IMG/VR virus record: IMGVR_UViG_2526164666_000034
Length of the DNA: 31,448 nt
Origin: a virus
Lineage: Duplodnaviria > Heunggongvirae > Uroviricota > Caudoviricetes
Direction: 5' to 3' (one strand)
This document shows positions 3,989 to 7,129 of this stretch, one piece after another (the first letter of the stretch is position 1; the number at the start of each line of letters is the position of its first letter). The notes below the pieces were generated by a model, which had not been told where the DNA came from, did not search any database, and worked only from the letters and a program-made list of their open reading frames with translations. Position numbers and translations under genes: made by a program.

Positions 3989-4177
3989 TTATCCAGCCGG
4001 TATTTCGTTATTCAGGTTCAGCGATACTTTTTTTAACGGGAGGCATTCACCGGGGATTTTTTGTTCGTCCCTTACCTGAATGCAGGATGACTTACTGTCA
4101 TAAATTCCGGTAATCACATTTTGTGGCTCACCCGTTATAAGAAAAACGGTCATCACCAGTGCAAATGCTGAAGTCAC
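3989..4177 (-). CDS. ydfD: YdfD-like small membrane protein (position downstream of dicB)
   Basis: 62-aa ORF with hydrophobic N-terminus, start overlapping the dicB stop by 4 nt; same position as ydfD in the Qin prophage as recalled. Confidence 0.45.
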   Translation of the reverse strand: MTSAFALVMTVFLITGEPQNVITGIYDSKSSCIQVRDEQKIPGECLPLKKVSLNLNNEIPAG

Positions 4178-4362
4178 TGCTGTTCTCCGATAATACCAAG
4201 TTCAAGAAGGGCAATTCTGGAAAGTATGGAATTATCATTGAGAAGATAAGGTTCATATTTTCTCATCTTAATGGCATCTTCCGTAAACTCCCGGTTACTG
4301 AGCAGAACACCAATATCAAAACAACCTTCAGACGTATTAACGTTTGGTAATAACGTTTCCAT
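4174..4362 (-). CDS. dicB: DicB cell-division inhibitor
   Basis: 62-aa protein METLLPNVNTSEGCF..GV..SN..FTEDAI... closely resembles E. coli DicB as recalled; lies immediately downstream of DicF, as in Qin. Confidence 0.85.
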   Translation of the reverse strand: METLLPNVNTSEGCFDIGVLLSNREFTEDAIKMRKYEPYLLNDNSILSRIALLELGIIGEQQ

Positions 4363-4536
4363 TATCGCGTCCTCAACAATGAATTTTGTGATGCGGTGCC
4401 TGGTGCCTCCAGGTGACGTTAACCAGTTAACAATTAACGCCGGATACAGAGAATCCACCCATAACACTGTTTTTGGTTTTAACTGTTCCGCGTGCGCTCA
4501 GCCGCATTCACCACATCACAAAATTCACTTTAAAAA

Positions 4537-4589
4537 GGGCGGCAGAGCAGTCACGGAGTAAAACTGATACCGCCAAACGTCACCAGAAA
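4537..4589 (-). ncRNA. dicF: DicF antisense sRNA (53-nt core) followed by a U-tract
   Basis: Minus-strand sequence TTTCTGGTGACGTTTGGCGGTATCAGTTTTACTCCGTGACTGCTCTGCCGCCC followed by TTTTT (plus 4531-4536) matches the recalled DicF sequence, which targets ftsZ mRNA. Confidence 0.85.
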
Positions 4590-4922
4590 ATTGATAACAG
4601 AGGGCGTTGCAGCGGGGTTGTCACTTAAGCGTATGGTCAACCTGACAACCCGGTGTCCTCAACGGGGAAGGAATAACCCCTCCATACTTACCGCCGCGCC
4701 ATTTCGCGGATTGCCACAACCGGAAGCGCACGGTCGACGAAAATTTAACGACAGGCTATCTATGAACCAGCTACCTCGCCGTGCGCTTTCGCGTTATGGT
4801 CTGACTTTTCAGAGAAATATCCTTTCAGTAAACTGTCAGTGCCGGATGTTCACCCGTGTCCGGCGCACGCACTCCACTTCACCCGTGGAGAACTCCTTAA
4901 TTACCAACCCTCAGGAGGGTGA

Positions 4923-5156
4923 ATGTTAAAATCAACTCTTATTGCTAAATGCCTTTATCAAAATCGCATGGTAAGCAGCATTTCAATAGGCGAGTCTGCA
5001 GTTAAAAGTATTTTCGAAGAGTACTTTCCCGGGCATGATTTTAATAAATGGAATACCAAATTACCGCCAGCAGTTTCAACGCGTATTCTGAAAGCAACCG
5101 AAAGAGCAAGTACAATTCGCGTTAACTATTTCATTAAAGATTTGTGGGATCTTTGA
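4923..5156 (+). CDS. Hypothetical 77-aa protein in an AT-rich island, convergent with the operon
   Basis: ORF with a strong Shine-Dalgarno (AGGAGGG) just upstream of the ATG; visibly AT-rich; 3' end overlaps the convergent 135-aa ORF by 23 nt. No recognisable family. Confidence 0.4.
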   Translation: MLKSTLIAKCLYQNRMVSSISIGESAVKSIFEEYFPGHDFNKWNTKLPPAVSTRILKATERASTIRVNYFIKDLWDL

Positions 5157-5541
5157 TATCCACAGAGCCTAAAGTATGTGCATATGGATGTGCTATTATG
5201 CGCCCTCGCAGATTTGCATCATTTTCTAAATTCACTGAACGAAACAGGGCATCAACAAGGCTCTGTACAATGCAAAGGCAATCGAAGACTGTCGCCGTTT
5301 CTGTTTTGATTGATGAAAGAACATGGCCATTCACGCAAACAGAAATTACCCGTTTATTAACATCGCTTTCCTGCTTTTGATTATCAGAACCATATAGCCC
5401 AGAAAAAGCATTGCGCACATTACGAACCATATTATCGATGGTTTCTTTTTCTGCGGTACTAAGGTCAAGAGTAGCCAGTTGTGAACGAACTATATTCGAT
5501 GCCATTTCCTGTAATGGCGTTGGTAAATCTTTAAATTCCAT
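5134..5541 (-). CDS. Hypothetical 135-aa protein in an AT-rich island between ydfC-like and dicF
   Basis: ORF in operon orientation starting 20 nt after the ydfC-like stop, GAGG-type RBS; AT-rich relative to flanks. No recognisable family. Confidence 0.5.
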   Translation of the reverse strand: MEFKDLPTPLQEMASNIVRSQLATLDLSTAEKETIDNMVRNVRNAFSGLYGSDNQKQESDVNKRVISVCVNGHVLSSIKTETATVFDCLCIVQSLVDALFRSVNLENDANLRGRIIAHPYAHTLGSVDIKDPTNL

Positions 5542-5563
5542 TATTAGCCTCGTTGGTTAGCTA

Positions 5564-5782
5564 TTAACGTGGGTATGTAATCATTCTGGCAATGCTTAAT
5601 GCCGCTGCTTTTTCCAGATTGGTGATATCCTGCTCCAGAGCGGACAGATTTTCAGCCTGCTTAGCCCTGGCTTCATTGGCCCATTTCAGGTCCTGCACCG
5701 CCTTAATTTTCTGGTGCATCCACTCATAAAGTTCATCATCGGTATAGTCTGGCGCGATGATGACGGGGTCTCGTTTCTGCAT
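5564..5782 (-). CDS. ydfC: YdfC-like small prophage protein
   Basis: 72-aa ORF downstream of dicA in the same orientation, matching the size and position of Qin ydfC; residue-level identity not verified. Confidence 0.45.
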   Translation of the reverse strand: MQKRDPVIIAPDYTDDELYEWMHQKIKAVQDLKWANEARAKQAENLSALEQDITNLEKAAALSIARMITYPR

Positions 5783-5854
5783 GTCGGCTCCTTGTGGTTA
5801 GCGTTGCCTGCTTTTTAACCACGTCAGGCGAGGTGGTATCCTCTGAGGGGTCTG

Positions 5855-6211
5855 TTACTCGAGAGGAAATTGGTTATGAATACAATCAAGTTTTCTTGCC
5901 CAGAATGTGGTGGCTAAGTCTTTGACACATCCTTTAAGCCGCAGGGCTCTGACAGTTTCGCGGGAGCCATCTGCAAAAATTGTGGTCACCTTGTAACTGA
6001 AGATGAGTCCTCGCAGTTCGATGACGAAATCGTTGACAATATCTTCGGTGCACTCACCAGAGACTTTCTGAAGTAAAGGCGCATACCGCTTAGTTACCGC
6101 TCTGATAACTCTTACCTGTCCGGCAATGGCGCTGATATCAATATAAAGCGCCATCGCTGTTTCTTTGCTGATCCCTGGACGCCTTCCATTCTGATGTTTG
6201 ACTTCGCCCAC
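5855..6211 (-). CDS. Hypothetical protein (118 aa, GTG start)
   Basis: ORF between dicA and the ydfC-like gene with an AGAGGA RBS 8 nt upstream of the GTG; sits where ydfA/ydfB lie in Qin, but no similarity is asserted. Confidence 0.4.
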   Translation of the reverse strand: MGEVKHQNGRRPGISKETAMALYIDISAIAGQVRVIRAVTKRYAPLLQKVSGECTEDIVNDFVIELRGLIFSYKVTTIFADGSRETVRALRLKGCVKDLATTFWARKLDCIHNQFPLE

Positions 6212-6418
6212 TGAGAAATCCTCTGCTTCCCCTTAACGCCGGGTAGCGGAACTGTTTGCTGAGAACACCGTGCGGTGTCTTGATGAGTAGAATTTAGAAT
6301 AGCCTAAGAGTTATGGTCAAGCTTTTTGTGTAGAAAAACCTAAGCTTCTTGATGTAAAAAACACAAGTATTTGAAAGTTTGTGCTTTTTATTACAGAGAG
6401 TTGCGAAAAAAAGGGGGG

Positions 6419-6825
6419 TTATTTATTTGCGCTTCTTTTGCGAGCTTTGAGTAGTTCTTCAAAAAGTTTGTTGAAATTCTCAACTCGAGCACGCATCTCT
6501 GACAACAGAGCCTTTTGCTCTGACTCAGGCAGTGCGTCGAACAGTTGAAGCAACTCTTTTTGATCTTCTGTCAGATTGACTGGCTGATTATCTGGGATCG
6601 GTTCGCCTGGTTGCTTATCTTCATCTCCAAAAAGAAGCCAAGTCGGCGAGCACTGAAGCGCCTGGCTCAGTGCGAATAATCTCTTCCCCGCTGGCTGTGT
6701 TTCATCTCTTTCCCATTGAGAAATTGTTACGTGAGCCACTTTGACCAGCTTACCTAATGCGGCCTGAGACAGTTTTAATTTTTTCGCCTGTATAAGAGGC
6801 GAGCACCGAAGGTTTCGTTTTTCAT
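6419..6825 (-). CDS. dicA: DicA-like HTH repressor (Cro/C1 family); frame broken in a 6-base homopolymer
   Basis: ATG at 6825 gives MKNETFGARLLYRRKN then a stop; the next frame continues ..LKLSQAALGKLVKVAHVTISQWE..FALSQALQCSPTWLLFGDEDKQP..NFNKLFEELLKARKR, matching recalled DicA along its length. One extra base in the run at plus 6779-6784 gives a single ~135-aa ORF. Confidence 0.75.
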
Positions 6826-6901
6826 ATTAGGTAATTCTAATTTTTCTTGACTTAGGTTTCTCTACGATCTAGTTTCCTTAGGAAAATCTAAGGGGTTCGA
6901 T
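6826..6901. promoter_or_regulatory. Divergent dicA/dicC promoter-operator region
   Basis: 76-bp intergenic region between divergent repressor genes; contains TTGACT...TAGTTT promoter-like hexamers and four TTAGG/CTAAGG half-site-like motifs. Confidence 0.45.
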
Positions 6902-7129
6902 ATGTTGAAAATTGATGCTATAGCGTTTTTTGGCAGCAAAACAAAGCTTGCCAATGTCGCAGGAGTTAGGCTGGCAAGCGTTGCTGCATGGGGGGAACTG
7001 GTTCCTGAAGGTCGCGCGATGCGCCTGCAAGAGGCATCCGGCGGGGAACTTCAGTACGACCCCAAAGTTTATGACGAATATCGTAAGGCAAAGCGGGCGG
7101 GGCGGTTGAACAATGAAAATCACCACTGA
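6902..7129 (+). CDS. dicC: DicC-like Cro-type regulator
   Basis: 75-aa ORF divergent from dicA; MLKIDAIAFFGSKTKLA..GVRLASV..EGRAMRLQEASGGELQYDPKVYDEYRKAKRAG resembles recalled DicC; AAGGGG RBS. Confidence 0.75.
   Translation: MLKIDAIAFFGSKTKLANVAGVRLASVAAWGELVPEGRAMRLQEASGGELQYDPKVYDEYRKAKRAGRLNNENHH

Follow-up and report, generated by a model that had tools for sequence, protein, structure and literature searches.

The window analyzed here, a 31,448-nt stretch of DNA from a tailed virus (Caudoviricetes; IMG/VR record IMGVR_UViG_2526164666_000034), contains in its left part a compact set of genes and control sites related to the dicA/dicC, DicF, and dicB module of the Qin prophage of Escherichia coli K-12. 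A preliminary description, prepared from the sequence without database searches, had recognized this Qin-type immunity and division-inhibition module, and the assignment was confirmed, with every family test scoring above its curated cutoff. Two divergent regulatory genes, dicA (6419-6825, minus strand) and dicC (6902-7129, plus strand), have start codons 76 bp apart (6826-6901). Leftward of this pair, on the minus strand, the order is ydfC (5564-5782), DicF (4537-4589), and dicB (4174-4362), with the small RNA (sRNA) gene located between the two protein-coding genes. The product of ydfC (72 aa) is 94% identical to K-12 YdfC. All open reading frames (ORFs) of this leftward operon are intact and identical to those of the finished reference genome O103 RM8385.

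The dicB ORF (62 aa), whose ATG start codon follows a GAGGA Shine-Dalgarno sequence at a distance of 7 nt, matched both curated models of this cell-division inhibitor at positions 1-62 of 62: Pfam DicB (PF05358; 129.5 bits, cutoff 27) and NCBIfam NF049927 (111 bits, cutoff 100). DicB had been described beforehand as recognizable nearly residue for residue. The protein is indeed a full-length member of the DicB family, but the closeness to the K-12 protein was overstated: the identity is only 65% over 55 aa (E = 3e-22), the last seven residues remain unaligned, and the divergence is located in the C-terminal half. By homology to K-12 DicB, the protein would be expected to block the FtsZ ring in a MinC-dependent manner. 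The ydfC-DicF-dicB part of the module is also carried by isolated phages, for example, Evi and vB_EcoS-813R8, with ~96% identity.

The corresponding claim for DicF was fully borne out. The alignment of 4537-4589 to K-12 dicF is identical at 53 of 53 positions, and a scan of the whole window against the Rfam family RF00039 yielded a minus-strand match (4537-4588; 76.7 bits, gathering score 48; E = 1.8e-15) that covers model positions 1-52 of 52, with zero non-canonical pairs flagged. The 3' stem-loop of DicF is followed by a T-run (4532-4536), together forming a predicted intrinsic terminator. Upstream of DicF lies an untranslated precursor region (4590-4909, minus strand) within a block (3127-4909) that shows 86% DNA identity to the K-12 segment from the ydfC/dicF spacer to ydfE. 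The corresponding K-12 transcript is a substrate of RNase E and RNase III processing (PMC10448788), and, following the K-12 precedent, the DicF precursor of the window would probably be processed by these RNases as well. In an RNAduplex prediction with the full-length RNA, the DicF segment AGUUUUACUCC pairs with GGAGAGAAACU of K-12 ftsZ at the Shine-Dalgarno region. The energy of this duplex (-40.8 kcal/mol) was equalled by 28 of 500 shuffles, so the energy alone is no better than that of the controls; we accept the pairing on the basis of the identity of the RNA with K-12 DicF, which suggests that the window DicF inherited the ftsZ ribosome-binding region as its target. The DicF targets in enterohemorrhagic E. 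coli, such as pchA, are known from the O157:H7 literature only.

Of the two regulatory genes, dicC encodes a 75-aa Cro-like protein that is 83% identical to K-12 DicC and matched NF007282 with 167.6 bits (cutoff 130) and P22_Cro with 49.7 bits. The dicA gene is split by a frameshift in the sequence as written, and this lesion is considered separately below. When one T is added, it encodes a CI-like repressor of 135 aa, with 63% identity to K-12 DicA, that matched NF007257 (“transcriptional repressor DicA”) with 241.6 bits, against a cutoff of 101.

The region between the dicA and dicC start codons, previously described as operator-like, does contain three sites conforming, exactly or with one mismatch, to the palindrome TTAG-N6-CTAA, namely TTAGGTAATTCTAA (6827-6840), TTAGGTTTCTCTAC (6852-6865), and TTAGGAAAATCTAA (6878-6891), spaced 25-26 bp apart. 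Two additional sites, TTAGAATAGCCTAA (6294-6307) and GTAGAAAAACCTAA (6330-6343), overlap or flank a promoter-like sequence on the minus strand downstream of dicA (TTGACC-18-TAAATT, 6320 to 6291), and we designated this second control region (6291-6343) the equivalent of dicBp, the leftward, PL-like promoter. The sequence immediately downstream of it (6227-6285) is 95% identical to the K-12 sequence directly upstream of ydfA. Within the 31.4-kb window, there are three exact occurrences of TTAG-N6-CTAA compared to 0.12 expected, no shuffled sequence contained three, and all three are located in the two control regions. When up to one mismatch was allowed, five sites were found, none of them outside these two regions, compared to an average of 10.7 in composition-matched shuffles. 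Because three exact copies were found against 0.12 expected, all in control regions, a chance origin of the pattern can be excluded. The Qin prophage of K-12 carries the same consensus at both control regions, with exact copies in the same relative places (two in the dicC-dicA interval and one in the dicA-ydfA interval), and the dicAC locus has been described as having the layout of the lambdoid OR and OL operators (PMC10448788). The palindrome is thus common to both control regions of the window and of Qin although the two DicA proteins share only 63% identity. It appears likely, judging from these sequences, that the DicA homolog binds the TTAG-N6-CTAA sites, and, with the palindrome in common, different DicA alleles may show partial cross-immunity. 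Compared to K-12 Qin, the spacers of the operators and the residues of the helix-turn-helix are not the same, and the specificity of immunity may differ as well.

What these components would do together can be outlined by analogy with K-12. There, DicA represses dicBp, such that deletion of dicA in a strain lacking dicBF results in a 22-fold increase in promoter activity; DicC is Cro-like; DicA is short, lacks a RecA-dependent cleavage site, and is inactivated by the antirepressor Rem; and DicB acts with MinC on FtsZ and also on ManXYZ (PMC10448788). In K-12 cells without dicBF, dicBp is spontaneously on in ~1% of the population, and this switching depends on DicC rather than on mutation; with dicBF present, high-level induction of dicBp is likely toxic, and K-12 dicA was deleted only in a strain without dicBF (PMC10448788). 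The window encodes an intact homolog of each of the K-12 components except DicA, which is split as written. The Rem homolog, a candidate antirepressor of DicA, is encoded next to hokD (12223-12483, plus strand; 71% identical to K-12 Rem, tblastn E = 4e-34). A second gene with an antirepressor domain is located at 19879-20448.

Under the mechanism that we regard as best supported, which is the K-12 mechanism transferred to this prophage, the DicA homolog would bind the three sites between dicA and dicC (PR/PRM-like) and the two sites at the promoter of the leftward operon (dicBp/PL), keeping dicC and the operon orf99-ydfC-orf135-DicF-dicB-ydfD silent. By analogy with K-12, the repressor could be inactivated by the Rem-type antirepressor, by a DicC-dependent bistable switch, or by stress. 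Loss of the repressor would then give rise to a long leftward transcript from which DicF would be cut, ending at its own terminator and base-pairing at the ribosome-binding site of ftsZ; DicB, acting with MinC, would block the function of the Z-ring, and cell division would stop. What the sequence itself shows is which family each part belongs to or which K-12 gene it equals, the pattern of operator-like sites, and the collinearity with Qin; the repression, RNA processing, FtsZ targeting, and antirepression steps of this scheme all derive from work on K-12. The expectation stated in the preliminary description, that derepression of the operon would allow the prophage to block FtsZ through both an sRNA and a protein, is in line with this scheme and follows from identity or homology to K-12 genes of established function (PMC10448788).

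As written, however, the window lacks an intact repressor. The dicA frameshift is caused by a T6 run at 6779-6784 (A6 on the coding strand); the run is T7 in the finished genomes examined. The result is a 16-codon N-terminal fragment followed by a stop, and the remaining ORF of 106 aa starts at a GTG inside the recognition helix, so that residues 1-29 are lost and the first part of the HTH_3 domain (residues 12-64) is removed. An intact ORF of 135 aa with HTH_3 is therefore not found in the sequence as written; the domain is recovered at residues 12-64 once one base is restored. The split had been noticed in the preliminary description, with the proviso that, if real, it would deprive the repressor of part of its DNA-binding helix-turn-helix. 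The T6 run and the loss of part of HTH_3 are indeed there, but the lesion itself is most likely not real.

Comparison with other genomes bears on this point directly. In the reference O103 RM8385, the run is T7, and dicA is intact, encodes 135 aa, and is not annotated as a pseudogene; its annotation is likewise that of an intact gene in the complete genomes listed. Among 751 complete E. coli genomes with this dicA allele, none matched the 121-nt stretch containing the contracted run exactly, the best matches having one gap. The GenBank records of the prophage PPompW, to which the window belongs as discussed below, have T7 in dicA in contrast to T6 in the window; for all eleven full-length records of the phage collection, 3222 bases aligned to the 3221-base query, consistent with an extra base at the run. 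Intact DicA of 135 aa is found on at least 1000 contigs, compared to 4 to 6 for the truncated form, and the truncated protein was deposited as “dicA transcriptional repressor” only from two strains named “DEC,” DEC10B and DEC5D. In a comparison covering 6321 nt, the window itself was 100% identical to contig AIGQ01000043.1 of the draft assembly GCA_000250015.2.

The frameshift in dicA is one of many. An alignment of the 31.4-kb window to the finished, 99.7%-identical genome of O103 RM8385 contains 38 gap positions, which include 26 isolated one-base indels (25 in addition to that in dicA), one in-frame 6-base deletion, and six gap positions in a divergent patch; 14 of the 26 isolated indels fall in runs of at least four identical bases. 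Substitutions number just 75, of which 36 are concentrated in one patch. Of 42 genes that lie completely inside the window and have an intact counterpart in the reference, nine are broken by indels, most of them with zero substitutions: dicA, the exonuclease gene, a DUF968 gene (13409), the Q antiterminator (14380), the small terminase (22845-23310, with five indels), the major capsid protein (25749), head closure, gp10, and gp17. Because the indels come without substitutions, they indicate base-calling error rather than decay. Overall, we estimate the probability that the dicA split is an error of the draft assembly behind the window, and not a property of the strain, at roughly 0.87.

In the exonuclease gene, the divergent patch of 36 substitutions is delimited by two one-base indels, a deletion at 3144 and an insertion at 3455, with the frame shifted inside. 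No complete E. coli genome matches the window at 3100-3500 with more than 96.5% identity, and the best matches are located at a chromosomal position other than the ompW prophage in the same O26 strains. The patch resembles a consensus in the draft assembly that is chimeric or stems from collapsed repeats. The in-frame 6-base deletion (18224) corresponds to the loss of one copy of a CGCTGA tandem repeat in a gene for a SASA-family carbohydrate esterase, the ORF of which remains open.

The same truncated DicA of 106 aa is encoded in six public assemblies, through three different lesions of a single tract, A7-TT-A4, that spans codons 15-18 of dicA. The A6 lesion is found in the source of the window and in two Logan-run assemblies (SRR28921461 and ERR8007794), A7-TT-A5 in ADVC01000605.1 and SRR15441463, and TA5 in ERR10498531. 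A7-TT-A5, like A6, is absent from all 751 complete genomes (only these two variants were checked). Both A6 Logan assemblies also contain a C7-to-C6 contraction that splits a DnaT-like gene ~1.4 kb away. In K-12, dicA does not contain the A7-TT-A4 tract and reads GGAAAAACC at that position.

Several considerations weigh against the reading adopted here. The length of the run was judged from assembled sequence. The three disruptive variants at one A7-TT-A4 tract in six assemblies could reflect real slippage. Real decay does occur in this prophage, given that the finished reference itself carries three frameshifted genes in it. With regard to function, the energy of the DicF/ftsZ duplex is, as mentioned above, indistinguishable from that of shuffled controls, and, to our knowledge, no experiment has been reported on this allele of DicA or DicB or on its operators. 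Furthermore, PPompW prophages have been described as generally defective, with real gene inactivations (PMC8112680).

The last point also speaks for the view that the frameshift is real and fixed, with the dicB operon silenced by a cross-reacting DicA-type repressor of another prophage or by other decay of the operon. The frameshift is, after all, present in the sequence, PPompW prophages have been described as defective, multiple genes being inactivated (PMC8112680), the TTAG-N6-CTAA half-sites are common to the operators of K-12 and of the window, which makes cross-repression conceivable, and related strains contain up to nine copies of related regions. We nevertheless consider this explanation unlikely: not one of the 751 complete genomes has the lesion, the 25 other isolated one-base indels come with almost no substitutions and also break essential head and terminase genes, and the same truncated protein appears in the two differently named strains DEC10B and DEC5D. 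In addition, K-12 dicA was deleted only in the absence of dicBF, high induction of dicBp being likely toxic (PMC10448788), whereas here dicB, DicF, and the promoter region are all intact. A different doubt concerns the output of the module, which might be a decayed remnant in which only DicF matters, DicB (65% identity) having lost its ability to inhibit division. The divergence of DicB in its C-terminal half and the defective state attributed to the prophage as a whole (PMC8112680) would fit such a loss. It appears improbable, however, in view of the full-length matches of DicB to both curated models, the occurrence of the exact 62-aa protein in isolated phages (Evi and vB_EcoS-813R8, for example) as well as on 1000 or more public contigs, and the intact operon ORFs, identical to those of the finished reference.

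The third explanation takes the tract variants at face value, as products of a hypermutable slippage site that would switch off the repressor in a subpopulation of cells and thereby trigger DicF and DicB in a phase-variable manner. If this were true, the trigger would be mutational, not regulatory: the gain or loss of one base in rare cells would eliminate the repressor, fire DicF and DicB, and lead to filamentation and ManXYZ-dependent phage resistance, and the six variant assemblies would be snapshots of such events. The finding of three disruptive variants in assemblies from different samples is compatible with this idea, and so is the spontaneous activity of K-12 dicBp in ~1% of cells without dicBF, but in K-12 the switching depends on DicC and not on mutation (PMC10448788). 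Moreover, A6 and A7-TT-A5 are both absent from the 751 complete genomes, additional homopolymer contractions are found close by in the A6 carriers, and K-12 dicA lacks the tract altogether. Slippage is further disfavored because, at 6 to 7 bases, the runs are on the short side for this process to be efficient, and we regard this explanation as highly improbable. An assembly error at the T6 run thus remains our preferred interpretation of the dicA split.

By sequence comparison, the whole window is the known prophage PPompW, located next to ompW, and the module occupies the early-left and immunity part of this lambdoid prophage. PPompW is a lambda-like prophage found at ompW in Shiga toxin-producing and enteropathogenic E. 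coli of the O26, O103, O111, and O145 types (Nakamura et al. 2021, PMC8112680) and has been reported from 44% of complete E. coli genomes (PMC8112680). The finished chromosomes closest to the window are those of O111:H11, O103, and O26-type strains, with 99.7-99.8% identity across the 25-kb left part. Across window positions 3980-7200, the PPompW GenBank records of the LC5678xx series (LC567818 to LC567841) are 99.9% identical, and in these records dicA, dicC, ydfC, and the cell division inhibition protein are already labeled. The window begins at the int stop codon, and the ompW junction, which falls outside the window, was read from the reference O103 RM8385, in which the prophage abuts ompW and this gene lies 46 bp past the int stop codon.

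The int gene (1-1131, minus strand) encodes a complete lambda-type tyrosine integrase of 376 aa that combines the arm-type DNA-binding domain (Pfam Arm-DNA-bind_1, PF09003; 77.7 bits) with the catalytic domain of tyrosine recombinases (Phage_integrase, PF00589; 61.3 bits) and is identical to the product of the ompW-adjacent gene of O103 RM8385. The adjacent xis gene (1109-1357, minus strand; 82 aa), which overlaps int by 23 nt, matched Pfam Exc (PF07825; 31.9 bits, cutoff 23), and the identical gene is named “excisionase” by the Prokaryotic Genome Annotation Pipeline (PGAP). The preliminary description had singled out the combination of the Dic module with a lambda-type int/xis pair. The two genes were correctly identified, but the combination is not unusual: it is the normal state of this phage group, as exemplified by PPompW, and Qin is the decayed relative. 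Parts of the 3.1-kb module are present in 4746 of 5426 complete E. coli genomes (~87%), in a median of two places per genome and in up to nine.

The relationship to Qin (ydfABC-dicF-dicB-ydfDE in K-12) extends well beyond the individual genes. The order and orientation are the same, with dicC divergent from dicA and followed leftward by ydfC, DicF, dicB, ydfD, and a ydfE-type exonuclease gene, and protein identities range from 47% for YdfD to 94% for YdfC. At the DNA level, the collinearity of the window and Qin spans the region from ydfE to the lysis genes. In addition to the block from ydfE to the DicF precursor and the stretch upstream of ydfA described above, the matching segments are 5544-5782 (ydfC, 95% identity), 6441-7392 (dicA-dicC-ydfX, 73%), 11836-13758 (hokD-rem-ydfU, 84%), and, further right, the lysis genes (74-84%); Rem, hokD, ydfU, and lysis-gene homologs are found to the right of the module in Qin as in the window. 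Unlike in Qin, ydfA and ydfB are replaced in the window by orf99, an insert of ~630 bp with orf135 and orf77 separates ydfC from DicF, a complete lambda-type integrase is encoded at ompW, and the replication, lysis, and head genes that Qin lost are retained. Kinship between this integrase and K-12 intQ was considered and rejected, given that tblastx detected no match to the intQ pseudogene region at E<1e-3.

DicF also has relatives in E. coli O157:H7, where four orthologs have been reported (cited in PMC10448788), likewise on lambdoid prophages of a pathogenic E. coli. A more distant parallel is the cI/cro switch of phage lambda with the PL-encoded Kil. The logic is the same: the genes for a repressor and a Cro-type protein are transcribed divergently from a region with three operators, further operators are found at the leftward promoter, and the leftward operon encodes a division inhibitor. 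DicB is not known to be related in sequence to Kil. Unlike in lambda, the repressor DicA is short (135 aa) and, in K-12, has no site for RecA-dependent cleavage and responds to an antirepressor instead (PMC10448788), and the operon adds an sRNA effector.

Among the remaining genes of the leftward operon, the ydfD homolog (3989-4177, minus strand; 62 aa) is the last small one; it overlaps dicB by 4 nt and contains the Pfam domain DUF1482 (56.4 bits). Beyond it lies the gene for the YdfE-like 3'-5' exonuclease (1422-3893, minus strand; 823 aa in the reference), which has an Rv2179c-like exonuclease domain (226.6 bits) and 86% DNA identity to K-12 ydfE and is disrupted in the window by the two indels at 3144 and 3455. 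The segment inserted in the dicB operon (4910-5543, ~630 bp) contains orf135 (5134-5541, minus strand; phrog_1363) and the convergent orf77 (4923-5156, plus strand, opposite to the operon; phrog_10348), which overlap by 23 nt. This segment has no DNA match in K-12 Qin and no defense-system match in PADLOC. At the place of K-12 ydfA/ydfB, orf99 (5855-6154, minus strand) corresponds to a coding sequence annotated by PGAP (WP_001240336.1) and belongs to phrog_21318. For orf77, orf135, and orf99, no function was obtained from Pfam, NCBIfam, PHROGs, or PADLOC, the PHROG matches being limited to function-unknown families. Antisense to orf99, a plus-strand frame (5877-6077), considered as a possible alternative to orf99 as the true gene, contains a zinc-ribbon-like CPEC...CKNC pattern and an in-frame TAA (5916-5918). 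A query in which this stop was replaced showed the same single mismatch in 14 of 14 phage records, including isolated phages, consistent with TAA in each of them; these 14 sequences are too alike to decide which strand is coding at 5877-6077.

To the right of the module, dicC is followed by a YdaT-family gene (7113-7664, plus strand), the first 93 aa of which are 87% identical to K-12 YdfX. Between the replication genes and hokD, the prophage carries as cargo an intact paa gene (10757-11515, plus strand) for the AcfC-family adhesin Paa; a fimbrial-protein pseudogene lies directly upstream and carries a frameshift in the finished reference as well. A hok/sok-type toxin-antitoxin locus (11703-12005) consists of a sok match in Rfam (103.9 bits; 11703-11852) and hokD (11850-12005, by reference annotation). 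Further downstream, two tRNA genes, for Ile and Arg by reference annotation, are located beyond Q in the region 15134-15373 and 16153-16325, and the SASA-family esterase gene is immediately preceded by a match to the STnc100 sRNA (100.8 bits).

Taken as a whole, the dicA/dicC-DicF-dicB module with the ompW prophage is an already known, ordinary cassette of the textbook type. If this reading is right, the locus holds no new biology: the cassette is present, at least in part, in ~87% of complete E. coli genomes and is annotated in GenBank for this very prophage, and the only potentially interesting element, a dicBF operon without its repressor, is most likely a sequencing artifact. The practical value of the analysis is in the warning that a draft assembly with many homopolymer-length errors is behind the window, and the apparent pseudogenes found here (dicA, Q, terminase, capsid, and exonuclease) should not be interpreted biologically without accurate reads. 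The TTAG-N6-CTAA consensus, with three plus two sites in this prophage and two plus one exact sites in K-12, could serve as a guide for studies of DicA binding.

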